Assembly: GCA_044892525.1 (NCBI GenBank)
Contig: CM097885.1
Coordinates: forward strand, 16,990,001 to 17,054,000
Length of the DNA stretch: 64,000 nt
Reading direction: 5' to 3'
Origin: Schmidtea polychroa
Lineage: Eukaryota
Shown in pieces: positions 1,189 to 20,880 of the stretch; within the stretch, counting starts at the first letter, position 1; each line of letters begins with the position of its first letter. Made by a program: the position numbers and the translations under genes. The notes under the pieces were generated by a model, which saw only the letters and a program-made list of their open reading frames with translations, had not been told where the DNA came from and did not search any database.

Positions 1189-4100
1189 TTAGACCAGTCG
1201 TAATTGATTTATAATTATTTCTGCAGTAATGCTTTTTAACATTAATTTATGTGATTTAAAGTCTTCTGGTGTTAGTCCTTGGATATATTCAGGATCAGTA
1301 TTAAAATATTTAAGTTCTATAGGTTTTATATTTTGAACTTGATTATATAAAGGTTTAGGAATTAATATTTCAGGATATTGGATTTCTACTTTAGCAAGTT
1401 GAAGGTCTGTAATCTCTAGGTTATAAATTTCATTTATTTTATCAAGATTTTTTATTATAGGGATTAAATCATTTCCAATAGGTAATGTTGTCTTCAAGTC
1501 AGAAAGTATAAATCTTTTATCATCATAATTTGTTATAGCAATCTTGTTACACTCTTCAAGATATATATTATGTTTCTCTGATTTAAGATGATGGGTTTTA
1601 GCAATTTTATTTTTATAATTTATATTTAATGAATCTTTATACTCTTGATGTGTGAAGGTTTTTGACACTGATTTTTGAATTCCTTTACTTTTATTTTCTT
1701 TATAGCTTTTCGGGTTTTCAGGGAATGAAGGATATTCAAATGTGTGATCTATTTCAACAGATCCTTCTCCCTCCCCTATTATAAATTTTATTGTATGCTC
1801 TTTCATAATTGGTTTGTCTTTCATTTCAAGAGAATATTGTTTAGGTCTAATAAACACTCCTCCACTTATTGGAGTATTTGGTTTTTCATCTTTAAAAGTA
1901 AATAATTCTCCAGAGTTGTTTATTAATTTATTTAAGGTTTCGTTTTCACTTATTTCCTTTTTTAAATCTTTACTATGACCTTTTAAAAACATACTATCAG
2001 TGTCCATAGCATGCATGGATATTCGATCTCCAAAATGTGGTACTAGAACATCATAGTAGGCTTCATACATTTGAAGCTTTGAAAGTTCTAAAATTGAAAA
2101 CCCTATAAAGATTGGTTTATTATAAGTTTTTACAGAGTTTTTAATCTCTATGGCTATAAGGTTACTAGAGAATATCTCGGCATTTTTAAATGTGGGCTTT
2201 CCAATTATCCGGTTGTACCTATTAAGGTCTTTGGATGTATTGGTCAAAAGCTCTACACGTGTGTACTTGTCTATATTCTCCATGGTCTTTCCAAAGACCG
2301 CATTGTTCAGGAGTTTGTAAATCATATCAAGAAATGCATTTCCAGCTCTCTTTGCTGCATTTCTTTTCAAAATATTTCCCTCTATGAATTTTTTCATAAA
2401 AGGGGCTTGTCGAAATTTAATAATGGAATGTACTTTTTTTAAAACCATTCCATGGGAGAGATAAAACTGAAGGAGTCTATAATGACAAAGGTAATCAGTT
2501 TTATCGGTCTGATCGCATAAAAGTTTTATACAGGGCGATCTATCCTGAGCCATCTGCCAGTCTGAAAGTTCTTCAGTCGAGATCTTTCTTCTTACTGGAG
2601 CAAATGGAAAGAATCTTGTCCTGGATTTTATTTCATTGGGATATTCAAGATCGCATTCTATGACATATCCAAATTGAGAATCTTTTGGTGTTTTTAGAAT
2701 TTCTTGTATTAATTCCTCAGTGGGCTCTTCCCAGGTGAACTTGCCAATTGGAAGGTATTGAGTCATTACTCCCGCATATAAAGCTGTTGCATCTATATAC
2801 ATTATTTCAGAAGGATTAGAAAGACCTTCCATTATTTCCTTACGATCTTCTGGGTTTGTTATTTCTACATATAGAGCATCAGGATCTTTGAAAAATTTAG
2901 GATAAAGAGTTGTAAAATTATTAGCATTTATTTCTCTATTCCCTTGTACTGAAGAAATACCTCCTCTAATATTATGTTTATATACATTAAACATATCAAG
3001 CTCAACTAATAATTCAATAGTTTTATTTCTTACTGCTACATCTTCATCAGTCCATATGGTATATAATAATATATCCCAAGCTAGAGAGGGAGCGGTTATA
3101 TAATTATAAGGTTTTAATTCAAAAGCTTTTGAAAATGTCTCGAAGCAATCAGCTAAGATATAAACATCCAAGGAAAGATACATGTCAGTATATTCTCCAA
3201 GGTTTCTACAGTTGAATAGATTCCACATTTTAACTGCACGGGAATATTCCTGATCAGAAATCCCTGATTGTGTTAAAACAGAAAAGAAATCTTCTTGGGG
3301 TGGGAGTAATTCATTATATTTTTCAAAGGAGTCTATATAATCATATGGATAGATTCCTTTTGCTAGACAGGTATTATATTCCTCTAATGGAATATTGTTT
3401 TTTAATAACACATGTTCTTTTGTATATTTAAAATCCTCAGGGTTCATAGTTTTAGCAATCCCATCCAAAGACATCCCTAAGAAATTTAACGAGTCCAAAA
3501 ACTTAAAGCATCCATATTGAATGCTTTTATATTTTTCTTTTGTAAGTCCAATAACCTTGAAAGAGTTTTTAGCATTTGCGGCCAGATGCTTAATGAATAG
3601 GTGAATATCATAGCCAAAAAGATTGTGAAATATAAATGGTATGTGTGTTGGTTTTTTACAATTGAGATTACATTTTTTATGGGCTGCTCCTCTGTAATTA
3701 TTTTCTCTTTTAAAATGATCATGGTCTGCAACCTTTGGCTCCTCATCCTCAAACTCTTGTTTACACATCCAGCAGTGTGTTGCATTTTTATATTCTTCCT
3801 CTTGTTCTTCTGAAAAATTCATAGGAAAGTTGGATTTTAATATTATATATAATTCATGTTCTAGATTATTTAAAGTTTTAACAAAATGATCTAGAGTCTC
3901 TTTGTCAGAAGTTCCTCTAAATGAATATTCTCTAGATTCTACAAGTTCTGGATAATTACTTTTAAAAAACATTTTATAAGCAGAGGGTATTTGTTTTGTT
4001 AGTTTTACAGTATTAGTTTTTGTTCGTCTTAGTTTTACATTTATAGCTTCAAAATCACAATAAACCACTCCCAATGCTTCTAATAGATTGGAATAGTTTT

Positions 4101-5568
4101 TAAACCTCATATTAGCATTTTTCTTGTGTGGCATTTTTATTAAAGCAGGTTGATTCTTACAACAGAGTCTCTCATGTTTAATAGCAGCAAGTTTTGAACT
4201 TGAATGATATAAACATCTTTTACAACATATGCCTCCACGAATGAGTGTGTTTCCTTTCATAAAACTTTGAAAATTCTTTATTAAGATATAATGAAGTTTT
4301 TTATCTAACATAGTGCCTCCGGACGCAGTGCTTTCTGCTTCTGGTTCTAATGAAATGCCTTCTTCTGCTTCTCTCCTCGGGTGAACGCTTTGAACCTCTT
4401 CACCATATTCTTCTCCATCAAAGTCTTCATCTGGTTTACCTTCTTCTAATATTAAAAGATCTACTTCTCTCTTTTCATCTGAGATTTCCATGTTAGAAAT
4501 GTAAATAGGAATAATGTGTTTATAATTTTTATTTTTTCTAGTTTTTGTAATTTTGGTTGGAATGAATTGATAAATATTAATTTTAAGATTATTTAATTTT
4601 TCAAATGCTGGAACATCTTCAATTTTCATTGGGTGGGAAAAATCTTTTGGATAAATTAATTCAGATTCATATTCTTCATATTTTTGAACTCTCTGTGGGT
4701 TAGTTGCTTGAGGATGTAAGTGTGCAAGTATTGACCATTGAAAACATTTATTATCTTTATTCTGTACATTAATAACATGGTTGGAGGTGAATGGTGTGTG
4801 AATAAAAGATTTAGGATTTGGTGGTGCGCCTCTCCAGTATTCAATCTCTATATTTTGAAAAGAGTGGAATCTTAAATTAGATTCTCCTAGTTCTTGTTCC
4901 ACCTGTTCTTGTTTTTCTTCCAATTCTTTAGCTATATCATTAACAAGTTTATTTCCTGCTTTTGTAGAAAATAAATATTTATATGAGGTTTCAATTTTTA
5001 CATCTAGAGGCATTGCGATTGAATCATCTCCTCTCCAGTATTTTGCATTTCCTGTAAATTTAACTTTTATAACATTAAATCTTGATCTACCAAATTTTTT
5101 TATAGCATCATCCATTGATGATATTATTTTTTTTTTATTTTCTCTTATATATTGCATGATTGATCTGGGTCCTCGTTTTACTTCTGCAATTACATCGGTG
5201 TGATTGAAGTCATCCCAATTAAACTCTAGTTTTTCAGCTTTTTCAGTCATTGAGTTTGAATCAGAATCTTTTGCTTCAAGACCACAATCTTCTATGTGTC
5301 TTAAGTAAAAAGATTTTATCCTCATCGTTTTTCCACATGCTGAACATTCGAATATTTCTCTGTTTTTAGGAACTCCAATACAATTTTTAAAATGCTTCTT
5401 ATAACCTGAAAATAAATATCTATCCTTACATTTAGTACAGATTTTGGAATTAGTGTCATCTAGTGTGTTAGCTTTTATTAAATGGTCTTTTGATTTTTTA
5501 TGAGATGTTAAAGCAGTTTTATTTTTAAAATTTTTTTCACAAATTTCACAATTGAAAATAGCTTCCAT
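1189..5568 (-). CDS. Protein-primed family B DNA polymerase (Polinton type) with N-terminal C2H2 zinc fingers and an HNH/Endonuclease VII insertion
   Basis: Exo motifs YCDFE and FHNLFGYD; CWMC...DHDH...RGAAHKKCN; polymerase motifs YIDATALY, KLLNNAVFGK, MDTDS; C-terminal DDKR. Uninterrupted 1459 aa. Confidence 0.95.
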   Translation of the reverse strand: MEAIFNCEICEKNFKNKTALTSHKKSKDHLIKANTLDDTNSKICTKCKDRYLFSGYKKHFKNCIGVPKNREIFECSACGKTMRIKSFYLRHIEDCGLEAKDSDSNSMTEKAEKLEFNWDDFNHTDVIAEVKRGPRSIMQYIRENKKKIISSMDDAIKKFGRSRFNVIKVKFTGNAKYWRGDDSIAMPLDVKIETSYKYLFSTKAGNKLVNDIAKELEEKQEQVEQELGESNLRFHSFQNIEIEYWRGAPPNPKSFIHTPFTSNHVINVQNKDNKCFQWSILAHLHPQATNPQRVQKYEEYESELIYPKDFSHPMKIEDVPAFEKLNNLKINIYQFIPTKITKTRKNKNYKHIIPIYISNMEISDEKREVDLLILEEGKPDEDFDGEEYGEEVQSVHPRREAEEGISLEPEAESTASGGTMLDKKLHYILIKNFQSFMKGNTLIRGGICCKRCLYHSSSKLAAIKHERLCCKNQPALIKMPHKKNANMRFKNYSNLLEALGVVYCDFEAINVKLRRTKTNTVKLTKQIPSAYKMFFKSNYPELVESREYSFRGTSDKETLDHFVKTLNNLEHELYIILKSNFPMNFSEEQEEEYKNATHCWMCKQEFEDEEPKVADHDHFKRENNYRGAAHKKCNLNCKKPTHIPFIFHNLFGYDIHLFIKHLAANAKNSFKVIGLTKEKYKSIQYGCFKFLDSLNFLGMSLDGIAKTMNPEDFKYTKEHVLLKNNIPLEEYNTCLAKGIYPYDYIDSFEKYNELLPPQEDFFSVLTQSGISDQEYSRAVKMWNLFNCRNLGEYTDMYLSLDVYILADCFETFSKAFELKPYNYITAPSLAWDILLYTIWTDEDVAVRNKTIELLVELDMFNVYKHNIRGGISSVQGNREINANNFTTLYPKFFKDPDALYVEITNPEDRKEIMEGLSNPSEIMYIDATALYAGVMTQYLPIGKFTWEEPTEELIQEILKTPKDSQFGYVIECDLEYPNEIKSRTRFFPFAPVRRKISTEELSDWQMAQDRSPCIKLLCDQTDKTDYLCHYRLLQFYLSHGMVLKKVHSIIKFRQAPFMKKFIEGNILKRNAAKRAGNAFLDMIYKLLNNAVFGKTMENIDKYTRVELLTNTSKDLNRYNRIIGKPTFKNAEIFSSNLIAIEIKNSVKTYNKPIFIGFSILELSKLQMYEAYYDVLVPHFGDRISMHAMDTDSMFLKGHSKDLKKEISENETLNKLINNSGELFTFKDEKPNTPISGGVFIRPKQYSLEMKDKPIMKEHTIKFIIGEGEGSVEIDHTFEYPSFPENPKSYKENKSKGIQKSVSKTFTHQEYKDSLNINYKNKIAKTHHLKSEKHNIYLEECNKIAITNYDDKRFILSDLKTTLPIGNDLIPIIKNLDKINEIYNLEITDLQLAKVEIQYPEILIPKPLYNQVQNIKPIELKYFNTDPEYIQGLTPEDFKSHKLMLKSITAEIIINQLRLV

Positions 5569-5712
5569 TTTTAAAAGAATCTTTTGGTTGGATACGATGT
5601 TTTGGTTTTGATATTAATTTTTATTTTTTTTAAATCTAAAAGTGATCAGGCGACCTAGATCATTATGAATTAGGTAATCTGATATTCTTATAACATTAAA
5701 TCCTTAAGACCA

Positions 5713-5958
5713 AGTAGTGAGGAATCTATGCACCCCGTTACCTTTTCTCGGAATTACTAATCTATAAATACATCTATTCCGAACTTTTTTACTTTTAAGG
5801 GAAGAAATTAAGGGTTAATGGCAATAGGGGACAAAGTTTAAAAGTTAAAAAAAGTGAAGAATATGGGGTAAAAAAGCATATAAATGTGGAAAATATGGGT
5901 CAATAGCGCTGTTTTTTTTGAGGGTTGGGGTGCTGGGGTGCATAGATTCCTCACTACT
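5713..5958. repeat. 24-bp perfect inverted repeat pair at the end of element 1
   Basis: AGTAGTGAGGAATCTATGCACCCC at 5713-5736 and its reverse complement at 5935-5958. Confidence 0.9.
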
Positions 5959-6536
5959 ATTGGTTTAATCTTCAAACCTCAACAAAATACGATTTTCACC
6001 AAAAAACCTGTCTGTAAATAATAGGAACGTTTTTTTGCTTGCTTAGATAACTAAGGAAAATATCTTTTTTACCAAAATTATTGAAGGGGCTTATAATTTT
6101 CATTCATTTATAATTTTTTTAGAAGAGTGCTGTAATTTTTAGAACTTTGATATATGTAATAAAGGAAAATGTGAAACAGTGAAAATTAATTATTTTCTGT
6201 AATTCAAGTTATTTAATTGTCAAGTGAGTGTATACAATTAACTATTATAATCTATTATAACTATTAATCTAAAATTTCATTTTACTCATTTTTGATCTGA
6301 GAAAATTTCTTTTTATTTTATAGCCCAATATGTCTGAGAAGAGAAGAAAAACTTCTTTTAATGTAAACTACACGACTGAATTTCCATTTATAACGAAAGT
6401 GGCACATGATGACTCCAAAGCGTATTGCGCAATATGCTGTACAAAATTCTCAATTTCCTCTGGCGATCAACATGCTGATAGCAAACGCCATAAAGCATCT
6501 CTAGAAGCTGGATCATCTAGCAAGAAAGTCAGCGAC

Positions 6537-6700
6537 AGTAGATGGATTGGGCACCGCTGGCACAGTACCCCCCCCTCTCCTCCCCCCGTCGGTAAGATTT
6601 TCAAAAATATTCTAAGTCTAAAAGTACATTTTTTTCAAGGTCAAATTTAAACAAAGACATATGACTCATCAAGGTCATTGAAACAAAGACCATGACTCAT
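6537..6700 (+). repeat. Left TIR of Polinton 2
   Basis: Near-perfect reverse complement of ~20715-20880 with a few substitutions. Confidence 0.95.
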
Positions 6701-6926
6701 TCAAGGTCATTTTCAAGGTCATATGACTCATTCAAGGTCATTCCCGAGGTCATATGACTCATTCAAGGTCATTCTCAAGGTCATATGACTCATACTATGA
6801 CTCATCAAAATTTTCAAGGTCATTTTCAAGGCACCTGAGTCATCCTATGACTCATCAAGGTCATTTTCAAGGTCGCATGACTCATCCAAGGTCATATGAG
6901 TCATCGCGATGAGTCATCAAGGTCAT
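6635..6926. repeat. Subterminal tandem array of TGACTCA and TCAAGGTCA units
   Basis: About 11 TGACTCA/TGAGTCA and about 10 YCAAGGTCA motifs, counted by eye. Confidence 0.9.
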
Positions 6927-7182
6927 ATTATTATTTTTAAAAAATATTATTATTTTTTCAAAGTTCCCGTCAATGAAAATTAATAATCGATAGCTCATTT
7001 TAAAGCTCAATCCAAGGCCTTTCGAATGAGCCATATATCTTGTTATTAAGATTATTATTTCTAAAGATATTATTATTAATCTATATACACAGAGTCTATC
7101 CGACAAAATATTTTGTCCCCCTATGGGTAATGCTCACAAGGGTACTGGTCACGCTCAACAAATCAACAAAACATACATTTAT

Positions 7183-7683
7183 TTAAACAATAAAATAATG
7201 TAAAATTAACAAAGGCAAACTAAATATTGATGTACTACTATTCGCAGCAATATTGTTAGAAATTGGTAACGATGAATTGATTTTCAGATATTCTATTGAT
7301 CCTTTGATTGTTTGAATTTCTCTTAATAATAATTCAATCTTTTTTAACAAATAATCATGCTTCTTATCAATAATTTTCATATTCTTTTTATTTTCAACAA
7401 TAGAGTTATTGAAAACTTCAATATGATCAATCAATTTAATTTTTATATTTTGTATATATGCAAATGATAGTTCATAACTGTTTTCTAAATTCTCCAATCT
7501 TTGAGATATTCTTTTTCCTGGATGCTTTGACCATTTTGGTTTGTCGAGAATATATAAAATATCCATCAACTTGGCAGTATTCGGACAAACACATATTGAT
7601 TTATTAAAAGACTCTACTGTTATTGTTGTATTGTGTGAGCACACACTCGTTATAATAATTAGCAATATGAATATAGTTTTCAT
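7183..7683 (-). CDS. Putative secreted or GPI-anchored coiled-coil glycoprotein
   Basis: Signal peptide MKTIFILLIIITSVCS; N-glycosylation sequons NTT, NKS, NNS, NSS x2; heptad-rich middle; Ser/Ala spacer then hydrophobic C-terminus IFSLPLLILHYFIV. Confidence 0.7.
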   Translation of the reverse strand: MKTIFILLIIITSVCSHNTTITVESFNKSICVCPNTAKLMDILYILDKPKWSKHPGKRISQRLENLENSYELSFAYIQNIKIKLIDHIEVFNNSIVENKKNMKIIDKKHDYLLKKIELLLREIQTIKGSIEYLKINSSLPISNNIAANSSTSIFSLPLLILHYFIV

Positions 7684-7783
7684 GGTGTATCAAATCCTTT
7701 CTTTTACATTTATAGTCTATCAACCAATCAAAATCATACGGTATTAGTATAAATAAAACATCATATTTTAAATTATTGTAAAA

Positions 7784-8298
7784 ATGTCTCATTTTATGGA
7801 AAATCTTTTAAGAGAACTCGTCAACAAGAATATTATGGAAAGCCTCTGTTTCCTGGTCGATCGGACCGAAAAGATCATAGAAGGTAATCACATTGATTAT
7901 GATGATGTGATCAATTCCGATTGTCTCGAAACCAAAAAATTCTATTTTAATAGGATTTTTAACTACCTATGCGACGAGGAGATGAAGTGGACCCGAATAC
8001 TAGTAGGGTTCGCTTATATGAAGATAATAATTGAAAAAAGTCTATGGGACTCCGAGCACTATTATCAGTGGTCTCAAGAAGTAATACTTTTATAATCTAT
8101 ATTTTATTAATATTTATTTTCTAGATAATCAAGTCAAAGTTTCAACCATGGATTGAAGCCAATGGCGGATGGGGCGTACTCAATCAACTCGCCAGAAATG
8201 CAAAAGAAATAGACGATCAGAAAAGAAAATTTAAAAACTATATTAAACTTGCAACAGGTGTTGCTATTTTGTATGTTTTATGTCGGTTTTTTAAATAA
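7784..8298 (+). CDS. Two-exon Bcl-2 family homolog (7784-8080 + 8125-8298, 156 aa)
   Basis: BH1-like EMKWTRILVGFAY; 44-nt phase-0 intron GTAATA...TTCTAG; exon 2 gives BH2-like PWIEANGGWG and tail anchor IKLATGVAILYVLCRFFK, then an AATAAA signal. Confidence 0.85.
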
Positions 8299-8375
8299 AA
8301 ATTAATATAGTTATTTTGTTTGATTTTTAAATAAAATTTTAAATAAATTTACAAACACTAATTAACTAAAATTTA

Positions 8376-8678
8376 TTAATTAACACATTCGCAGTCGTCA
8401 TCTCCACATTTCATTATATTTTCAACGACATGATCAATACAATCATTCGTAATATTATCTTTAGATTCGTCTTTAGGTTCCTCTATAGGTTCATCTATAG
8501 GTTCATCTATAGGTTCATAGATTTCCTCATCAATTTCTTGAGTATTGGTTTCTTGAGTTTCTTCCTCATCATCAAATCCTGTATCTTGACTCTCAACTAT
8601 CCAGCCGATATTTAAGGCATTTGTAATAGATAATATGTCCTCAATTTTCACACCAGCTATTTCTGCTAACTTTTCCAA
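8376..8678 (-). CDS. Acidic Polinton protein with EPID/EPIE repeats (probably a last exon)
   Basis: 100-codon acidic frame without an ATG start; true 5' end not determined. Confidence 0.5.
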   Translation of the reverse strand: MEKLAEIAGVKIEDILSITNALNIGWIVESQDTGFDDEEETQETNTQEIDEEIYEPIDEPIDEPIEEPKDESKDNITNDCIDHVVENIMKCGDDDCECVN

Positions 8679-8887
8679 AAAAAAGTTGATTAAAAATTCT
8701 AAATAATAAATAATTCGGTAATTAATTAATCATGTTAACCTTTTTCTGCAGTCATTTTCATCACTTTAAAACTAAATTATAAGTTTGTTTATAGATTTTC
8801 TTTGTTAAATTTGCATGTCATTTGCATTTATGTTGCAATTAATAAAGAAAAAAACAAATCTGACTAATACATTTATCAAATATAACA

Positions 8888-9298
8888 TTAAAATATTTGT
8901 GAAAGTCTAGCAGACATAATTTTCCAAATAGGAGAATATACATCATTATTATCAACTTTATATCCCTGGATTGCAATTGTTATATACCAATTTTCATTTC
9001 CTTTGAAACTGATTTCATCAAAAGCATCATAAAATCTTGCATATCTATTGTTGAACCATGCATGTTGATTACACGATAGATTCGAATCTATCCGTTTAAA
9101 AACATCATCAATAGTTTTGACATCAATCATTGAAAGCGTGCCGGATAAGAATTGAAATTTAGTTGGAATTAGCTTGACTGGTGCAACCAATTTCATATTG
9201 ATTTCTTCTTTCAAAAAATACATTTTGTAGTTGTGAAACATTTGAACTGGTTGTACCATTTCTTTAGGTTTTTCGGTGCTTGAAATTTTCTTGGTCAT
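8888..9298 (-). CDS. Hypothetical Polinton protein (136 aa)
   Basis: ATG-initiated ORF of normal complexity, preceded on the minus strand by TATA- and CCAAT-type motifs at 9333-9367. Confidence 0.6.
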   Translation of the reverse strand: MTKKISSTEKPKEMVQPVQMFHNYKMYFLKEEINMKLVAPVKLIPTKFQFLSGTLSMIDVKTIDDVFKRIDSNLSCNQHAWFNNRYARFYDAFDEISFKGNENWYITIAIQGYKVDNNDVYSPIWKIMSARLSQIF

Positions 9299-9686
9299 CG
9301 TGAATAATGAATAAATTTAAATGTTACAGGGTTTTTATACCTTTGACTCATGCCTATCAACCAATCAGATTATAGCATGTCTTTGTTTAAATTGCATTCA
9401 AAATGCATTGATGTTGCATTGTCACATGTTTTGTTATATGTTCTATTTACAGATTTATTATTTATGTGTTTTATTATTAATGTTTAAATTATTACATGTT
9501 TTGTTATATATTCTATTTACAGATTTATTATTAATGTGTTTCATTATTATTAATGTTTTTTTTACTATTATTATTACTATTCATATTTCTATTATTACTA
9601 TTTCTATTATTATTATTACTATTATTATTATTACTATTATTTATTACTATTTCAAATATAAAAACACAACAGTTACAAAAATACAT

Positions 9687-10055
9687 TTATTCATATCCAA
9701 GATCTACAATCCGGGAGTAGTGAAACCTTCGCAGAGTTTTCACTAACTCCCATTCGACATATCGCCGATATCGATCGGCACAGCATGAGCATCCGATGAT
9801 GCACTGGTACTCCGGCTCCAATTGTTTGATGGTTCTGTTTATCTTTATATCCCACAAGAACTGGTGAAATACCTCCATTATTCTAATTTGAGTTGTGTAG
9901 AAAATGAGGTCCGGAATTATTTCTGCTTCTCGATCCTTGATAATTTCAATAATTTGAGGATAATAATATTTTATCCTATTGATCATAACTTCTAAATATT
10001 TTTCTAAAATAATAAATAGTAAATAATGTGAAAATAAAAAATTAAAATTTACCAT
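9687..10055 (-). CDS. Hypothetical Polinton protein with a Cys cluster (CIIGCSCC), probably spliced
   Basis: ORF with a T-rich, intron-like 5' part ending TTTTAG near 10004; coding-like 3' part. Confidence 0.45.
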   Translation of the reverse strand: MVNFNFLFSHYLLFIILEKYLEVMINRIKYYYPQIIEIIKDREAEIIPDLIFYTTQIRIMEVFHQFLWDIKINRTIKQLEPEYQCIIGCSCCADRYRRYVEWELVKTLRRFHYSRIVDLGYE

Positions 10056-10358
10056 AATCGTCGATATCTTTCATGAGGTTTGCAGCGCTTGGTAATTTGT
10101 ACATGGTGTTGAAAAAATGAATCCTAAACAAAAACCGTTTGTTTAAATCAATCAATAACCAATTAGAAATCACCAATGAAATTATCTCATTTCGAACATT
10201 GTCAACAAATTCTCTATACTCCAAATTTCTCAACCCCAGCATGACAACCTTTCCACTAGCAAACACAATGTCCCGATGATTTACGAGTAAAAACAGATAT
10301 TTTCAACCCAAAAGGTGCCATGGTTTATAAACAAAGTTGAAAACCTCTATGAATAATA

Positions 10359-10883
10359 ATGTTTCTAAAAGCAAGGGTGAAAAATATTAGGAAATTAAGA
10401 AAAGGTATTAGAAAGACTATTAAAGTTCCAAAGGTTCCACCAACAACTAGTTATACACCATCTAAAAAACTTGTAACTGAAAATTTTTCTGCAATGAATC
10501 TTATTTCGAAAAATCCTAAACCTAAACGTAAAACCCGTAAAACCAGTAAAAAAGTAGTTAAAAATCATCGCAGTTTTCCATTTTTTAATGCATTGTTAAA
10601 GGCCCCGAGTATGAAAAGAACGAATATATTGCAATCATTCCCAAATTTTGTTGTCGATGATTTACTCAATATTACACTTAAAGTAGTCAAAGGCAAAATT
10701 AAAATCAGTAAATCAAAAAAGCATTTATTGAGCAAACATAGGAAACCATTGTTATCTTTAGTAAATAATAAAAATCGTAAGAAAATGAGGAAAATTATAT
10801 ATAAACAACAAGGTGGATTTATTGGCGCATTGATACCTCTGGCATTATCATTATTAGGTGGAGTTGTAGGAAATCAATCATAA
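10359..10883 (+). CDS. Basic virion core protein with an adenovirus pX-like C-terminus
   Basis: Lys/Arg-rich 174 aa ending QQGGFIGALIPLALSLLGG, resembling the GG cleavage site plus hydrophobic tail of adenovirus protein X and Polinton equivalents. Confidence 0.75.
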   Translation: MFLKARVKNIRKLRKGIRKTIKVPKVPPTTSYTPSKKLVTENFSAMNLISKNPKPKRKTRKTSKKVVKNHRSFPFFNALLKAPSMKRTNILQSFPNFVVDDLLNITLKVVKGKIKISKSKKHLLSKHRKPLLSLVNNKNRKKMRKIIYKQQGGFIGALIPLALSLLGGVVGNQS

Positions 10884-10987
10884 ACAATGGGTGCTAATCC
10901 TCCATTGCCCGACATTAAATTTAATTTTAAATCTTCTTGTTGTAATGGAGAAGATTTGGACGAACCCAGAAGACGAAGCCGGTTTCG

Positions 10988-11237
10988 GTGGAGTGGAGAT
11001 TTCCAACAAGAGCGTATAAAACATTTGGTATTGACGATTTATGGCAAATGGATTTGATGGAGATGATACCTTATTCGAAAATTAACAATGGGAATAAATA
11101 TATTTTAACATGTATTAATGTATACAGCAGGTTTGCACGAGCAATACCAGTCAAGGCTAAATCTGCAGAAGAAATGTCCAAGGCAATTAATATTTTATTT
11201 AAAGATGGACATCCTAATAACTTGCAAACAGATTTGG

Positions 11238-11273
<36 letters not shown>

Positions 11274-11917
11274 TTATTATTATTTTAGGTAAAGAATTCT
11301 ACAATAGCAAAGTTAAGCAAATCCTCTATAAACTGAAAATAAATCACTACTCGGTACATTCTCAATACAAAGCTGCCCATGTTGAAAGATTTAATCGAAC
11401 ATTGAGAGATCGATTAAAGAAATTGTTCGTGCATCAAAGTAATAAAAAATGGGTAAATGCTTTACCGAAAATAATAACAAGTTATAATCATTCATCACAT
11501 CGAGGACTGAATGGATTGAGACCGGTTGATATTACATCAAAAACATCATTGACTTCTAAGAAATCTGTAAAAATTACAAAACCTAAATATAAAGTCGGTG
11601 ATCATGTTAGAATTAGTAAAATTAGTGCATCACCATTTATTAAAAATTTTGATACAAATTGGAGTGATGAAGTCTTTGTAATTTCAAAAATAAATACTAA
11701 ACAGAATCCTGTAATGTATGTCATCAAAGACAATGATAATAATATTGTACAGGGGAAATTTTATGAGCAGGAATTACAAGTCATTCCTCCCCCAAAAGTA
11801 TTTAGAATTCAAAAAATATTGAAAACTAAAAAGGTCGGTAAGGATAAACAATACTATATCAAATGGCACGGTTATCAAAACCCGTCATGGATATCGTCAA
11901 AAGACCTAGTAAAATGA
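10988..11917 (+). CDS. Retroviral-type (rve) integrase with C-terminal chromodomain; 51-nt intron at 11238-11288; N-terminus apparently truncated
   Basis: WQMDL, LQTDLG/KEF, VERFNRTLR (DDE triad); chromodomain-like IQKILKTK...YYIKWHGY...SWI. Confidence 0.93.
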
Positions 11918-13294
11918 ATTTTTATATTATTTTACCTAGCAATAGCTGTCCACTTATTCATCCAGATAATAAAGCCAGCAAATTCAGGGTCAATCTTCAA
12001 AATCCGATATATTTGGATAATAGCTGGGAAGTTGCTCTGTTGGATTTTACATTTGTATACCAAGCCTTTCCATTTTATAGTAAATCCGAATTATGTATAT
12101 TTGATAGACCGTCGCCCCAGGCTGTAATAGAATTTGGGGCGTTTGAGGAAGTTTTTCCAATGAATTCAATTACTGATAGTAGAAATGATATAGAGTTTTA
12201 TATTAATGGTTCGCAAACTGAATATTTAGATTTGAACGATACTTTATTGACTGTTCAGATCAAGGTTATAGATAAAGATAAAAAAGCTTTGGGTCATGCT
12301 GCTGATGCAATACCGAACAATTTCATGTTTCATACTCTTTTTAAAGATGCAGTGTTGGGATTTAATTATATCAAGATTGAAGGTGGTAATAATACATTCA
12401 TTCACAAGGCTTTGATAGAAACTATTTTAAATTACAATTCCGATACTAAAAATACATGTCTTTTATCCAATGGGATATGCTGCAACCGACGATGAAAGAA
12501 AAAAGTGGATTAAAGGCTCAAAAACATTCACCATGTGTTCATCGTTACAACTCGATTTTATGGATCAACCGAAATATTTGCTTCCAGGAGTTAATGTCCA
12601 CATTCGATTGAAAAGATCCGATTCTGCACTAACTCTTACTAGTGCTACAGGTGCACCAATATGTCAATTAGTTGATGCAAAATTATTGGTGAGAAGAGTA
12701 CGAGTAGACCCCTCAGTATTAGCAGGTCATCAATTGGGTCTTAATTCAAAACATGCAATTTATCCATTAAAAACAAAGGAAATTGTACAATTTGCTATTG
12801 CTAAAGGTGCTTCATCATTCTATAAAGAACAAATATTTGGTGACAGAAGAATGCCTAATTTTATTCTGATAACATTTCAAAGTGAAGCACAATATAATGG
12901 ATCATATACTGCGTCCAGCTCAATTTTCAAAAACTTTAATGTTACTTCATTGACTTTGTCGAAAAATACTGATTATAGAGAAACATATATTCAAGATTTC
13001 GAGAATGACAATTTCTGTGCGACATATATGCAGAGTATTGTTAGAAATCTGGGTTATTTAGATAAAAATTTGAATTGCGGAATAACTCTAGAAGATTTTA
13101 AAAGCAAATACCCATTTTTTACATTTGTTTTAGCCCCTGATTTTGATTTAAATCAAAGTCAATTACCTCAAAATGGAAATTTACGACTGGATATAAAGTT
13201 TGCAAAAGCTATTACTGAACCAGTACATGTTATAATATATGGAGTATTTGAAAATGAAGTTCAAATTACTGCAAATAGAACTGTGTTGGTATAA
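11914..13294 (+). pseudogene. Penton N-terminus fused to major capsid (hexon-like) gene, with one frameshift near 12465
   Basis: MNFYIILPSNS...WEVAL is a typical Polinton minor-capsid start. KSELCIF...IEFYI...YLDLNDT...QPKYLLPGV...GNLRLDIKF is typical Polinton major capsid. Confidence 0.85.
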
Positions 13295-13398
13295 ATGTAT
13301 ATTGAAACACAAAAAGTTGTCATGGAGTAAGTTGTTTTTTTATACTCTGGATTTATTTAAGTAGTTCTGTTCAGGTCAATAAAATCGGAAAACAGATA

Positions 13399-13700
13399 TT
13401 GGGAAATGAATTTGTTGGAGTTTTTCCTCTTGATAAAATTCCATATTTGAGCAATAATCAAGCAATAATCGTCAATACTCAATCGTCTCATCTCGGTGGA
13501 GAACATTGGATAGCTATATATATGAAACCTGGTAATATATTCGTGTTCGATCCTATGGGTTTTTATTACCCGGCTTTGTTGATATCAAAACTACAAACAA
13601 TGGGGAAACCTATTGTGTATAATAAAACTATGTTTTCAAAAACCCAAACATGCGGTCAACATTGTTTAGCTTGGTTATTGTACAAAAAATGTTTAATAAA
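13399..13700 (+). CDS. Adenain-like cysteine protease (possibly damaged)
   Basis: FVGVFPLD, IVNT...GEHWIAIY, FDPMG, TCGQHC catalytic motifs. The ORF-track tail is (ATT)n read-through; true ends uncertain. Confidence 0.85.
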
Positions 13701-13795
13701 TTTGATGTTTAATAAATGTATCCTTTCCTTTGTTGTTGTGTTATTATTAATATTATTATTATTAATATTATTATTATTATTATTAATATTATTAT

Positions 13796-13826
<31 letters not shown>

Positions 13827-15044
13827 ATTAATATTATTATTATTATTATTAATATTATTATTATTAATATTATTAATATTATTATTATTTTTAATTAATT
13901 TTATTATTATTCAAATAAATATTATTATTTGTAACATAAAGACTGCCTTTGCCTGAAGCATGCACAGTGCAAGTTAACAAAGGCATGACTAACAAAGGCA
14001 GTCACATGTAATTTTGAGTGATTTACATTACATACATGCATGCGTGTGATTGGTTGAGTGATTAAAATATTCAGTGTATATGTGTGTGTGTCTATATTCT
14101 CATTGGCTGGGACAGGAAAATATTCATTCTCTTTATAAACATTGACAAATCTAAAATTTGTCACAATTATTCTAAATTTTTCAAATTCCAATTTTAAAAA
14201 TCTAAATAGAAATAAAATGGCTAACAATAATATATTAAGAACACTATTAACGACAATGGGTAATTTATTTTATTTTATTATATTTTATTTTATTATTTTA
14301 GAACCATTCGATTGGTATCAAGTAACTCAAGACGACACAATTTTAAATGTTGATAATATCTTCAGTAATTTTATCCTTTTAATTTTTATTAAAATTAATT
14401 TTATATATTTTAGATTCAATTGTTATTAGTGATGACGACGATGATGTCGTTTTTATTGAACAAAATGTTAATGATGTTGGGCAAAACAAGGGTTTCAAAG
14501 AAAAAAGTAAATTTATTTTAGTATTTTATTTAAAAAAATTTTTTTTTTCAGCGTTTAATGTCGACATTGACGAAACGGAAAATGCAATCAATTGTGAGGA
14601 TGTTCAAAGTGATGATGAAGATATTATATTTATAGGCGAAACTACTGCCCCGGTTATTAATGTTGGGCAAAACCAGGTTTTCAATGAAAAAAGTAAATTT
14701 ATTTTAGTATTTTATTTTTAAACAATTTTTTTGGATTTAATGTTGACGAAACAGAAAATGCAATCAATTATGATGAGGATGTCCTCTCTGAAGAGGAATC
14801 GGATTCCGACATGGAATCTGAACAAAATGCTGTCGATGTTCAATAAAATGCCCTCAATTGTGAGGAGGATGTCCTCTCTGAAGAGGAATCGGATTCCGAC
14901 ATGGAATCTGAATGTAAGTCTTATTTATTTTTATATTTATTTTTATATATTTCTTTTAAATTTTATAAGAACTTTTTATAAGAACTTTTTTAAATATTTT
15001 TATATTAATTTCTTAAAAACTTTGTAATTAACTTATGATTATAC

Positions 15045-15480
15045 GAAGAAAATGATTTATGAGCAAAATGATTTATGACCAAAATGATTTATGACCAAAA
15101 TTATGATGAAAATGATTTATGAAGAAAATGACGAAAATTATGAATTTATGATTTATGAAGAAAATGACGAAAATTATGATTTATGACGAAAATTACGAAT
15201 TTATGATTTATAAAGAAAATTACGAATTTATGATTTATGATGAATTTATGATTTATGACAAATATAAGAATTTTTGAAGAAAATTACGAATTTATGATTT
15301 ATGAAGAAAATTACGAATTTATGATTTATGATGAATTTATGATTTATGACAAATATAAGAATTTATGATGAAAAAAAAAGATTTATGTTGAAAATAATGA
15401 AATTATGACGAAAATTATGAATTTATGATTATATGTTGAAAATTAATAGAAAATTATGATGAAAATTAGGAATTTATGAA
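15045..15480. repeat. Degenerate minisatellite (GAAAATTAYGAATTTATGATTTAT-type units)
   Basis: Visible tandem reiteration inside the putative large PolB intron. Confidence 0.85.
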
Positions 15481-15584
15481 GTAAATACTACGTTTCTGAA
15501 ATTAATATAAAAATATTTAAAAAGTGCTTATAAAACTATAGTTATAAAATAATTCTTGCAATGTGCATCTACAGTAGTTAAAAT

Positions 15585-15625
<41 letters not shown>

Positions 15626-15627
<2 letters not shown>

Positions 15628-15819
15628 TCTACAGTAAGCATGTAGCTACATAGTAGTCTACAGTAAGCATGTAGCTACATAGTAGTCTGCAGTGAGCATG
15701 CAGCTACTTCTTTTTAATATAATAATAGTATAAATAATAATCTGACCCTTCTACTATAGTCTACAGTGAGCATGTAGCTACATAGTAGTCTGCAGTGAGC
15801 ATGCAGCTACATCTCTTTA

Positions 15820-15899
<80 letters not shown>

Positions 15900-15978
15900 T
15901 AAATAATCTGACCCTTCTACTGTAGTCTACAGTGAGCATGTAGCTACATAGTAGTCTGCAGTGAGCATGCAGCTACTT
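15626..15978. repeat. ~30-bp palindrome-containing repeats (TCTRCAGTRAGCATGYAGCTAC) interspersed with (AAT)n
   Basis: About seven units; one further unit at ~20346-20369. Confidence 0.85.
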
Positions 15979-18900
15979 CTCTTTAATAATAATAATAATA
16001 ATAATCTTACTCGTCTAATATTTAACATATTCATATAATAATCTGACCCATATACTAAAATCTCTCTAATATTCTCTCGAATATATTAACCTATTTTCTA
16101 TAAGGATTTATCATCATTTGTTATATAGTTCATTTGAATTAAATAACAAATGATGATAAATCCTTATAGATGTAACAATTAATAACAATTAGAAAAAAGA
16201 ATAAAACTTTAATTTTATTATTTAACAGGTAGACTATACCCAAATTATTGTCAATCCTCAATTGGACATAACGATAAATGTCATCGCACCATGAAAAAGT
16301 ATTACAGAAAGACATTTAATTCAGTCAACTTTTTTATATGCCCCAAATGCGTGACTAGCGAAAAAATAAAATATAGGGAATTTTTTAATAAACATCATAG
16401 TCACTTAGGGCAATTTTCGATTTCAAAAAATGTTTTATTTAAAAAAATAAATAAAAAATTAAATAAAAAAAAAATTTAGAAAATAATTTACAAAAAAATT
16501 TGCAAAAAAATATTATTAAAAAGATGTTATTATAAAAGATTCAAATATTATAAAAGATTCAAATATTATTAAAGATTCAAATATTATTAAAAAAGATTCA
16601 AATATTATTAAAAAAGATTCGATTAAAAGACCTGCTGGTTTAATTAAAAATTTTATTCCGAATAAATTATCGCGACCTGAAGTGATAGTCATCAGCAAAG
16701 ATGAATGTGTAGCTTCAACGTCTTTCAACATATGTCAAATAGGCGGCTCTTTGTTTGAACCTATGGTAGAATCCGATTTGAACGGATCGCGAAAAACTTT
16801 AAAATTTGATATAAGAAATCAAAACTTAGTAAAAATAGCCCTAACATCAAAAATTGAAGATAGATTAATAGAGGAAATAGAAAAGATGGGCAATGTAAAA
16901 ATTCAATTTACAATTTTAATTAAATTTGAAAAAGATGGGGAGATCCGGGATAATTATTTTTCAAACAATGCGCAAGTTTTTTCAGCAAATTTTATAAACG
17001 AGGGGGTGAGCAAATTAAATGAAAAGATTGAGCAATTCACCTATTTAGGAAGCGGGTGGCGCGTAATGAATATTTTAGAGATAGATTTTATTTTAACGAA
17101 ATACGCACCCGTTAGTAGATTATCCGGACATAGCTATATAAAAACCCCATCTGCATTAAAATTGAAACATGCAATAATTAATGTTAAAAACAACGACCAT
17201 AAGTGTTTCTTATATAGCATTCTTGCACTTTTAAAAAGAGAAGAAATAGGTCGTAATCACCAAAGAGCCGCCAAATATATAGAATTTTTACCTCTATTAA
17301 ATTATGATGAAGACACAGATTGCCCGATGAGGCTATGTAACATTCCCAAATTTGAAAGGAAAAATCGTGATTTAAAACTAAGCATAAACGTTCTTTCGTA
17401 TAATCCAGCCAGTTCTGATTGTGATATTTCTCAGGATTATGTAGCTCACCACCCTCATCTTAATATCATACATCGCTCCAAGGTTATAGATGGTAGGCCG
17501 ATTTATTTATTACTTTTGAGTAATAAAGATAAATATCATTATACGGCAGTGACAGACTTGGACAAATTAATGAATTGTCATTTAAATGAAAATGTAAATG
17601 TTCAAATAAGGTGTAACTGGTGCCCACATTGTTTAAATGGCTTTAGATATAAGAATGCTTTCGATCAGCATGTTGCTCTATGCTGTAAAAATCAGACTGG
17701 CACAACCTTGTATACACTTCCTAAAAATAAGGATTTATTATTCACAGATTACGCAAAAACTTTTACACCTCCCTTCGTAATTTATGCCGATTTTGAATCG
17801 GTTTTACCTCAACATGAAACATATCATCAAATACATTTACCTATCTCAGCAGGTCTTTTATTAATTAATAATTATACAAACACAAAATTTTATTATTATT
17901 TTTTTGGACCTAATTGTATTTTGGATTTTTTGAGGAAAGTGGAGGAAATTGCTGTCACAATTGTCCTGCCATATTATGAACTTGAAGGTCATAAAGGTAT
18001 GTCTACTTTGTCTTTTGCTCAGGAGCGTGCCTTTCGATCTAGTACTATTTGTTATTTGTGTAAAAAAGCTATTATTAATCCTGTGAGAGATCATTGCCAT
18101 TTTACAGGTAGATATGTCGGAGCGGCATGTAGGAAATGTAATGTCTCTCGCAGGATTAATAAGTTGTTACCAGTAGTCTTTCATAATTTACGAGGCTATG
18201 ACCTCCACCATATTTTAAAACATGGTCTCAGTGATTTTCCCCTTTGGGAACTTAATATTATACCTACCTCTACATAAAAATTTATATCTTTAATTGCATA
18301 TATTAACAAATTGCCTGTTCGTTTTATTGACAGCATGCAATTTGTTAATTGTTCTTTAGCAAAAGCTGTGAAAACACTTACTACTTTTCCGTTAACTTCG
18401 TCTGTCTTTCAAGGGTCGATGATTCACTCTAAAGGTGTCTTTCCATATAATTTCGCTACTTCTTTGTATGTTCTTGAATCGACTTTAGAATTACCTCCTA
18501 TTTGGTCTGATATTACGGAAGATCAATATGCTGAGGCTCAACTAATTTGGAGTCAGCATAACTGTAATAATTTGTTAGATTATATGTTAATCTACCTAAA
18601 ATTGGACGTATACCTCCTCGCAGACTATTTTCAGCAATTCCGCGGTAAGGCAATTGCTTACAATGGTCTGGATCCTCTTAATTTCTACGGGATTCCCGGT
18701 ATGTCATGGGCCTCAGCGCTTATGACATTAACGGAACCCATAGAACTTTTGCAGGACATGGAAATGTATAATTTCTATGAGGGAGGTATCCGGGGTGGGT
18801 TAACATTTGTTAACAAACATTACACGGCTACTTCAGATGATACAGAATTATTGTACATTGATATAAATAATCTGTATGGTTGGGCTCTTAGCCAAAATCT

Positions 18901-20373
18901 TCCGTATGGTGATTTTTCTTGGGTGAATGTTAACTTGAATGATGTTTTACTTGAATGTATGAACACGGATATTGATAACCTTCCATATGGGTATACTATG
19001 GAGGTTGATATCGATATTCCGGAATGTGTGCATGACTTTTTGAATGATTTTCCGCTTGCGCCGGAAAAGTTGTGCCCGCCTAATTCAAAAGTTGAGAAGC
19101 TTATGCTTACGCATTGGCCAAAGAGGAACTATGTTCTTCACTGGAGGCTTCTCAAATTGTATATAGAATTAGGTGCGGTTGTTGTAAATATTCATAGATG
19201 TATAAAGTATAAACAAGGACCTATCTTTAAATCCTACATAGACACCAACACCACTTTACGATCTCAGTCTACTAGCGAGATATATAGGGACTTGTTTAAA
19301 TTGTATAATAACAGTCTGTACGGTAAATCCGTTGAAAATCTGAAAAAACGAATGAATTTGAGGTTGTGTAATTCATCCGAAAAGATGATAGTATACTCCT
19401 CAAAGCCGACTTTCAGAAAGTCTATAAGAATCGATAACGATCTGATTGCGGCACATTTGGAAAAAGATTCAATTTGTTTAGACAGACCTAGCTACATCGG
19501 TCAAACAGTACTAGATCTGTCTAAACTGCGGATGTACCAGCTCCAATATATTGATTTGGAGAAGTACAGACGTCAATATAAATGTATTATAAATATTATT
19601 GCCGGTGATACCGACAGTTTCTTTTTGGAAATAAAAAATTTAAAATTAACAACTCTATTACCTCAGATGATCTCTGATAATTTATTGGATACGTCAAATT
19701 ACGATCCAACACACCCCTTGTATAATAGGAACCTTGACTCTGTCATCGGGAAGTTTAAAGATGAGAGCAAGGGATTAGGTTATTCCGAATGGGTTTTCTT
19801 ACGCCCTAAATGTTATAGTCTTTTAGGTAGTAAGGAAACGGTAAAAGCGAAGGGGGTTAAATTACCAGGGACATCAATAAATCATGAAACATATCTAAAT
19901 TGCTTTCATTCAAATCAGGTGATTTCTGTACCGCAGACTAGAATAGGTACTAGAAATCACCAACTTTTTACTTTTAAAAATTCGAAAATTGCCCTAAGTA
20001 ATAATGATGATAAGCGCGCGTGGCTAGGCAAAAACATAAGTTACGCATTTGGGCACAATTTAGGAGTTGACGAATTAAGTGAATATGATGAGGAATTCAG
20101 TGCAGCTCCAAGTCCCAGTTTCGACGACAGCGAATGGGATGAAGATCAATAAGACAACTGAAAATTGTATAGAAACTTTTATTTACAAAAACTTGTATTT
20201 ATAACTTGTATTATAACATGTATTATAACTTGTATTTATATATATACATATTGAATAAAAATTTGTAATCAGATTTTTTTTTTAAATTATTTCAAGTATT
20301 TGTTGTTTTATTATAATTTTTTATATTTAATAGTGATTTTTATATAGTCTGCAGTGAGCATGCAGCTATATCA

Positions 20374-20592
<219 letters not shown>

Positions 20593-20714
20593 TACTTATT
20601 ATTATTGTTATAGATTTGATCATTTTGAAAGCTCTATTTTGATTGGTTATCTCAATTTTTATAAATGTAAAAACAAAAGTAATTTAGTTATTGAGAAATT
20701 TGATGAGTCATAGG

Positions 20715-20880
20715 ATGAGTCATGGTCTTTGTTTCAATGACCTTGATGAGTAATATGTCTTTGTTTAAATTTGACCTTGAAAAAAAATGTACCTTTAGAC
20801 TTAGAATATTTTTGAAAATCTTACCGACGGAGGGGTGGAGGGGGGGGGGTACTGTGCTAGCGGTGCCCAATCCATCTACT
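20715..20880 (-). repeat. Right TIR of Polinton 2
   Basis: Reverse complement of 6537-6700. Confidence 0.95.

Follow-up and report, generated by a model that had tools for sequence, protein, structure and literature searches.

Bcl2 and IAP homologs have been observed in adintoviruses, the animal Polintons studied by Starrett et al. 2021 (PMC8502044), and three Bcl2 labels appear in Supplementary Fig S2 of that work. As described there, the adintovirus Bcl2 gene resembles the one analyzed here in being accessory cargo of an element that encodes an integrase and a polymerase, and the accessible parts of the article's text and supplement text mention neither a flatworm element nor a donor gene, an intron or a test for selection. 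A preliminary description of our locus had placed Bcl-2 outside the standard Polinton gene set, but as cargo it is not new to Polintons given the homologs reported in the accessible parts of PMC8502044, and that claim was overstated. Planarian Burro LTR retrotransposons are also reported to carry a BCL2-like domain (PMC6431247). Burro is likewise a selfish element of the same animals with Bcl-2 cargo, and it has many copies in this genome, but its domain is reported as part of a polyprotein of ~3,000 aa and has no intron; where the Burro domain matched Polinton proteins, the scores were 20-31 bits. The preliminary description further took the Bcl-2 gene as support for a virus-like lifestyle, which goes too far, as the gene by itself shows no infectious cycle and the reported Burro domain sits in a retrotransposon. 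Viral Bcl-2 proteins (ASFV A179L, EBV BHRF1, KSHV Bcl-2, iridovirus and poxvirus vBcl-2, and adenovirus E1B-19K) share with the element proteins a compact fold, short loops and a tail anchor, but identities in structural alignments are 11-17%, and the capture by the element would have been an independent one, from a flatworm gene. By analogy, the element protein likely works as these viral proteins do. No planarian Polinton Bcl-2 was found in the literature searched, the coverage of which stopped short of subscription journals and Repbase. New here are the likely donor, host bcl2-1, the division of the element genes into spliced and intron-less clades, their copy number, the selection acting on them and their promoter class.

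Anatomy of the gene and its Polinton

The locus lies in a 64,000-nt stretch of the Schmidtea polychroa genome (contig CM097885.1, positions 16,990,001 to 17,054,000), which we refer to in full as the window. We confirmed that it holds a real two-exon gene of the Bcl-2 family within a Polinton. The features of this gene are as follows:

7724-7730, + strand: putative CCAAT box (CCAATCA), 60 nt before the ATG
7748-7755, + strand: putative TATA box (TATAAATA), 36 nt before the ATG
7784-8080, + strand: exon 1 (99 codons), predicted Bcl-2 fold helices 1-5 and part of 6
7985-8017, + strand: BH1-like KWTRILVGFAY, codons 68-78, in exon 1
8081-8124, + strand: putative GT-AG intron, 44 nt, AT-rich, phase-0, with an in-frame stop
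8125-8298, + strand: exon 2 (57 codons and TAA), with a BH2-like motif and membrane anchor
8149-8172, + strand: BH2-like WIEANGGW, in exon 2
8242-8292, + strand: predicted C-terminal membrane anchor, in exon 2, from hydropathy
8294-8299, + strand: AATAAA overlapping the stop codon, a candidate polyadenylation signal from sequence alone

The ORF list gives a 103-codon frame from the ATG at 7784 to 8095, and removal of the segment that begins GTAATA and ends TTCTAG leads to a TAA at 8296-8298 and a predicted spliced product of 156 residues. The short ORF, the 44-nt GT-AG segment, both motifs and the basic-flanked tail all lie where the preliminary description had put them. The BH2 motif is canonical, while the BH1 motif is a degenerate KWTR that aligns with NWGR/RWSR. 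The anchor (a 17-residue window with mean hydropathy 1.75, one residue from the C-terminus and with basic flanks) has similar hydrophobic counterparts in four other element families and in bcl2-1. Scored separately against the Pfam Bcl-2 family (PF00452, curated cut-off 31.4 bits), exon 1 matched positions 18-67 (E 0.01, 16.8 bits) and exon 2 positions 86-100 (E 0.24, 12.4 bits), both below the cut-off and in the right order. A close copy with its intron read through (L074) reached 31.0 bits against the same cut-off, and a subfamily copy (L046, 34.5 bits) and an intron-less relative (L053, 32.7 bits) exceeded it. The Atlas puts exon 1 beside Bcl-2 clusters, which is weak evidence, and a word-based protein search with exon 1 returned one unnamed 103-aa gene call as its sole match.

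The AlphaFold2 models are of the relatives L074 and L053, not of the window's joined product, and were built from Bcl-2-rich alignments, so they are not independent of sequence homology. L074, the exons of which are 90% and 95% identical to those in the window, was modeled from a 122-row alignment with the intron read through with X, giving a pLDDT of 83.7 and eight helices. Its best structural match was Bcl-xL (rmsd 2.4, 123 aligned) at Z 11.8, within the range flagged as weak for helical proteins (Z < ~13), and the first 24 rows were of the Bcl-2 family. For the intron-less L053 the pLDDT was 89.3, Bcl-xL matched at Z 16.1 (rmsd 2.1, 120 aligned), and the first 37 rows were all Bcl-2-fold proteins. 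Foldseek found no match at E<=0.001 in the PDB and viral libraries (best 0.0044), and its top rows were all Bcl-2 proteins, with Bcl-xL and viral Bcl-2 first. A Bcl-2 fold is what the models predict, in line with the homology first proposed from the letters.

The gene lies within the following element:

6537-20880: Polinton carrying the Bcl-2 gene, with inverted repeats and a 6-bp target duplication
6531-6536, no strand: left target-site duplication AGCGAC, same hexamer at 20881-20886
6537-6700, + strand: left terminal inverted repeat, begins AGTAG
7183-7683, - strand: divergent 166-aa ORF with a hydrophobic N-terminus, sharing the CCAAT box with the Bcl-2 gene
11048-11917, + strand: retroviral-type integrase with chromodomain (rve E 0.0036, Chromo E 0.0009, both below cut-off)
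11863-13294, + strand: remnants of the minor and major capsid-like genes, fused across a ~1.2 kb deletion
13375-13701, + strand: adenain-like cysteine protease frame (Peptidase_C5 28.0 bits, cut-off 21.3)
16763-20152, + strand: family B polymerase gene of the protein-primed type, broken by a stop codon
20715-20880, - strand: right terminal inverted repeat, begins AGTAG
20881-20886, no strand: right target-site duplication AGCGAC

The Polinton hallmarks found are inverted repeats (95.8% identical over 166 nt), a 6-bp duplication, a family B polymerase, an integrase, a protease, a packaging ATPase in a sister copy (Pox_A32 above cut-off) and, as a lead, capsid-like genes. One sister copy has a 6-bp target duplication of its own. 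The polymerase has no Pfam DNA_pol_B_2 match itself, and it aligns at 27% identity over ~1,100 aa (E 3e-88) with the Pfam-positive pPolB at 1189-5568. The capsid-like frames fall with DJR-like and NCLDV capsid clusters in the Atlas, which is a lead only, and a PDB sequence search with the capsid frame found nothing. The 166-aa ORF matched no Pfam family at cut-off and is 84-95% identical in sister copies. Three segments of a longer sister copy are missing from the window copy: one of ~1.0 kb at 10266, with most of the packaging ATPase, one of ~0.1 kb at 10996 and one of ~1.2 kb at 12080. The description of an intact gene inside the terminal repeats thus holds for the Bcl-2 gene, which is uninterrupted, but not for the element copy around it, which is defective through these deletions and the polymerase stop.

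Several other features of the element and its surroundings were observed. The integrase contains at 11238-11288 a GT-(ATT)n-TTTTAG segment between L-G and K-E-F codons that differs in length among copies, and in family D (L108) its place is taken by an AT-rich segment of unrelated sequence; the integrase segment is likely a second intron of the element. A small acidic gene with EPID repeats and a possible GT-AG intron near its start lies at 8385-8760 (- strand). The right inverted repeat of a sister copy is ~1.1 kb long (L100:5173-6293) and takes in most of the 7183-7683 ORF in inverted orientation. A 149-aa TBP-like gene (L084:915-1364, Pfam TBP E 1.9e-14) near the Bcl-2 gene recurs in L114, L117, L119-L123 and L125, across several Polinton families; it is not among the ORFs of the window copy, which has a deletion in that interval. 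To the left, 1189-5958 is a second, different Polinton fragment with an uninterrupted 1,459-aa pPolB (DNA_pol_B_2 E 1.6e-14), an end reading CACTACT at ~5958, and the same end occurs again, inverted, at ~5713. The C-terminus of its polymerase is duplicated at 610-1164 (73%), and a 170-aa frame at the window edge (3-515), with two hydrophobic stretches and no Pfam match, is probably part of this left-hand Polinton. At 6330-6536 and 20881-21600, one transposase-like frame, which we take from its motifs to be hAT-like and which the element interrupts, reads on across the target duplication.

The upstream region of the gene suggests its expression class. CCAAT occurs in seven of eight upstream regions of element Bcl-2 genes, with a background of 0.039 per 130 nt; two of these eight rows (L108 and L124) had mis-set starts, and L108 is the one lacking the box. 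It was absent before all seven genes compared that encode structural proteins, integrase or polymerase, and ATAAAC stands before most of these. We also observed that the ATAAAC box (10327-10332 in the window, and in the sister copy L099) stands before pVII-like, ATPase, and minor- and major-capsid-like genes, and in these two copies it was not found before the Bcl-2, integrase or polymerase genes. The Bcl-2 gene may accordingly be classed, from its promoter sequence, as a putative early gene transcribed by the host.

The putative intron and selection on both exons

Comparison among copies bears on whether the 44-nt segment is spliced. We fetched 59 loci with an exon-1 match, 57 of which had both exons, and GT...AG stood exactly at the projected joint in 51 of the 57; in five more the splice sites were shifted one base by a nearby indel, and the remaining copy was without the donor side. 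The 51 exact-site introns are 30-63 nt long and fall in all three frames, and every one contains an in-frame stop, so read-through would never give the full protein. Across the genome, exact matches to both exon flanks number at least 874, and GT and AG are kept in 869 of these 874 places, although these places were chosen by exact flanks and are young copies, the intact splice sites of which partly reflect youth. Together with the fetched loci, these places bear out the expectation that the gene would recur in other copies. In more distant families, 6 of 20 further loci pass a strict pattern for the same phase-0 site, with introns of 41, 43 and 44 nt and unrelated interiors, and the same site was seen by eye in L115; first exons of the distant loci are 33-54% identical to exon 1 of the window, the shared site persists in relatives with identities as low as 33-48%, and the in-frame copies among them were found by a search favoring 3n introns. 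The sister Polinton family C (L053 and its kin) has no intron at the junction and aligns across it, as do the host gene L042 and P0002. Opposite the in-frame intron of L074, which is 10 codons long, every homolog in the alignment shows a gap of 10 columns. An exact-match search of the genome for an intron-lacking copy of the window's own subfamily gave 0 matches. Nine GT-AG pairs in the locus give frames of >120 aa, and those other than 8081-8124 were rejected because this pair is the only one that keeps BH1 and the gapless fit to homologs.

Both exons are under purifying selection. Among five close copies, dN/dS was 0.08-0.19 in both exons, and among distant copies it was 0.11-0.32 in exon 2, with synonymous sites saturated in exon 1. 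The other two frames of exon 2, which are not independent of the first, have stops and ratios >1. In each of families B, C, D and E the Bcl-2 gene has Polinton genes as neighbors, while for family F (L115) the Polinton context rests on one 15-residue match.

These results weigh on two alternatives. Were the 44 nt not spliced, the 103-aa ORF would be the whole product, and the sequence downstream would be a fragment, either separate from it or dead. Database gene calls do list products of 103-108 aa (P0001 and P0003-P0007), but these calls are blind to introns, and while 44 nt is short for an intron, exon 2 of the window copy lacks a start codon yet evolves under purifying selection in frame, which makes splicing the best explanation. 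With GT and AG also kept at one phase-0 site although length and frame vary, and with the gapless fit to intron-less homologs, we regard an unspliced gene as extremely improbable, and 8081-8124 as likely a spliceosomal GT-AG intron. The gene might instead be a neutral passenger, or be kept for the benefit of the host through domestication, as could be imagined from the defects of the window copy and from the stops or frameshifts in many others. Against this stand dN/dS values well under 1 between lineages whose synonymous sites are saturated, the retention of the gene next to Polinton genes in four or more element families, and its hundreds of dispersed copies with no single syntenic, host-like one. 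The passenger form is largely refuted, and passenger and domesticated forms together strike us as very unlikely. Selection acted on replicating element lineages, which means that the gene serves the element and not this particular inserted copy.

Relationship to the host gene bcl2-1

The cellular gene most similar to the element genes is bcl2-1. Its host ortholog (L042/L101) is single-copy and 89% identical to ACW83059.1, which is listed as bcl2-1 in the supplement of PMC4993586, and RNAi of bcl2-1 is reported to lead to systemic cell death and lysis (PMC6970515 and PMC4993586, both citing earlier work). Together with a second host gene, 95% identical to a named entry, this ortholog points to a planarian host closely related to Schmidtea mediterranea. 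All 11 element sequences scored best against the bcl2-1 group (56-89 bits), compared with at most 38 bits for five other host Bcl-2 genes and Burro. The nearest named relative is the host gene, and not adenovirus E1B-19K or the herpes- and poxvirus vBcl-2 proteins named in the preliminary description. The element proteins are only 24-27% identical to bcl2-1 (ACW83059.1 / FJ807655.1 / UniRef C9WPR4), but share with it the spacing from W-S-x-E to P-W, the BH2 motif, the tail anchor and a non-canonical BH1; as this reads RWSR in bcl2-1, KWTR in the element gene is no sign of decay. The element protein is shorter (156 aa against 184 aa), with a short N-terminus and a short loop between helices 1 and 2, and the introns differ, as that of bcl2-1 follows GGW and is ~3 kb, while that of the element lies 16 codons earlier and is 44 nt.

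In a tree without long branches, the spliced families are united at 100/99 and the members of the intron-less family at 99/98. Both clades fall in a group supported at 99/99, which also holds bcl2-1 and four unnamed proteins (P0010, P0011, P0019 and P0036) that join it on long-branch removal. L044, Burro, L038 and P0018 were left out of this tree, and Bak-1 was not in it. A branch setting the element genes and the bcl2-1 group to one side had SH-aLRT 96 in a quick mixture tree and 52/90 in a careful tree. The phylogeny proposed earlier as a check does group the gene with a host Bcl-2 gene, namely bcl2-1, but the trees are only moderately resolved and the support falls when long branches are kept. 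An origin from L031, a host gene with the canonical NWGR, was rejected (p-AU 3e-6), and a shared origin with the Burro BCL2 domain was neither favored nor rejected (p-AU 0.059). The element gene was likely captured from the host bcl2-1 lineage, and there may have been one capture or two. The host intron after GGW is missing from all element versions, so the simplest reading would be that a processed copy was captured and that one clade later gained an intron.

Two further groups of Bcl-2 sequences were observed alongside. The P0010 and P0019 clusters are unnamed intron-less Bcl-2 proteins next to the bcl2-1/Polinton clade, found on ENA/Logan contigs of up to 13.7 kb, and they could represent paralogs in the host or else cargo that related elements carry elsewhere; no relative turned up in a scan of viral contigs with P0010. 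At 89.9-90.8 Mb of G000 C4, the canonical NWGR gene occurs as seven nearly identical copies in tandem (L031-L037).

Proposed function and its implications

We believe it probable that the predicted 156-residue product anchors in the mitochondrial outer membrane and restrains Bak/BH3-driven apoptosis while the element replicates. In this scheme, a gene of the bcl2-1 lineage would have been captured by a Polinton as an intron-less copy, and a new intron gained in the ancestor of one clade of element families. Host RNA polymerase II would transcribe the gene early from its CCAAT and TATA promoter, unlike the capsid and ATPase genes, and the host spliceosome would remove the 44-nt intron. The anchored protein would then hold back Bak/BH3-driven death, protecting the cell from the death that replication and integration of linear DNA would trigger. 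The pro-survival role is suggested by kinship to bcl2-1 only.

Other roles are compatible with a Bcl-2 fold. The fold does not fix function, as it occurs in several poxvirus proteins that are not known to block apoptosis; entries of the A52, A46, B14 and K7 type were among the structural matches of L053. Some herpes- and poxvirus Bcl-2-fold proteins dampen autophagy or innate stress signaling, and the element protein might similarly act outside the apoptosis switch, on autophagy (through a Beclin-type BH3) or on innate stress signaling. The BH1 glycine of NWGR is needed for BH3 binding in vertebrate Bcl-2, and the threonine at this position in the window protein, the divergent helix 2, the low identity to bcl2-1 and the occurrence of the fold in such viral proteins all lend this some weight. 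We nevertheless consider it unlikely, though not negligibly so, since the BH2 tryptophans, GGW and the membrane tail are kept as in bcl2-1, the top structural rows are pro-survival proteins of the Bcl-xL type, and the donor would be a survival gene with the same BH1 oddity. The protein could also promote death, or act as a decoy against host bcl2-1, aiding particle release or late culling of cells; Bak, Bax and Bok share the fold, and the element family has capsid-like, protease and ATPase genes. The BH3 signature of pro-apoptotic effectors (Bak/Bax) in helix 2 is L-x-x-x-(G/A/S)-D, but helix 2 of the element proteins reads FLVDR/FLVNR as against LAGIAD in Bak-1, and no signature of a small residue and Asp is conserved across families. 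With a promoter class unlike that of the capsid genes, and a grouping with bcl2-1 instead of Bak-1 (which was itself outside the tree), a pro-death role appears improbable. When the two exon products were modeled in complex with the BH3 region of Bak-1, the score was 0.21, under the mark of 0.34, in a run for which controls were not folded, and it speaks neither for nor against binding.

The gene would represent a traceable capture of a host death regulator by a virus-like transposon, with a donor that is identifiable and experimentally essential, and the element clades with and without the intron bracket the history of the capture. Because the selection indicates that the element needs its Bcl-2 protein, Polinton replication itself is implied to provoke host cell death. 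A practical consequence is that counts of Bcl-2 genes in such genomes are swamped by element-borne copies. Planarian Polintons are reported to be silenced by piRNAs and de-silenced during differentiation (PMC8532177), so that these ideas are testable in a model animal. A broader idea, which we hold as unlikely, is that planarian Polintons captured the one survival gene essential to the animal, equipped it with a new intron and an early promoter, and carried it to many hundreds of loci, forming together with Burro a piRNA-gated anti-death reservoir that comes on when stem-cell progeny differentiate or lose PIWI. If this is true, selfish elements would shape which cells survive in a regenerating animal.
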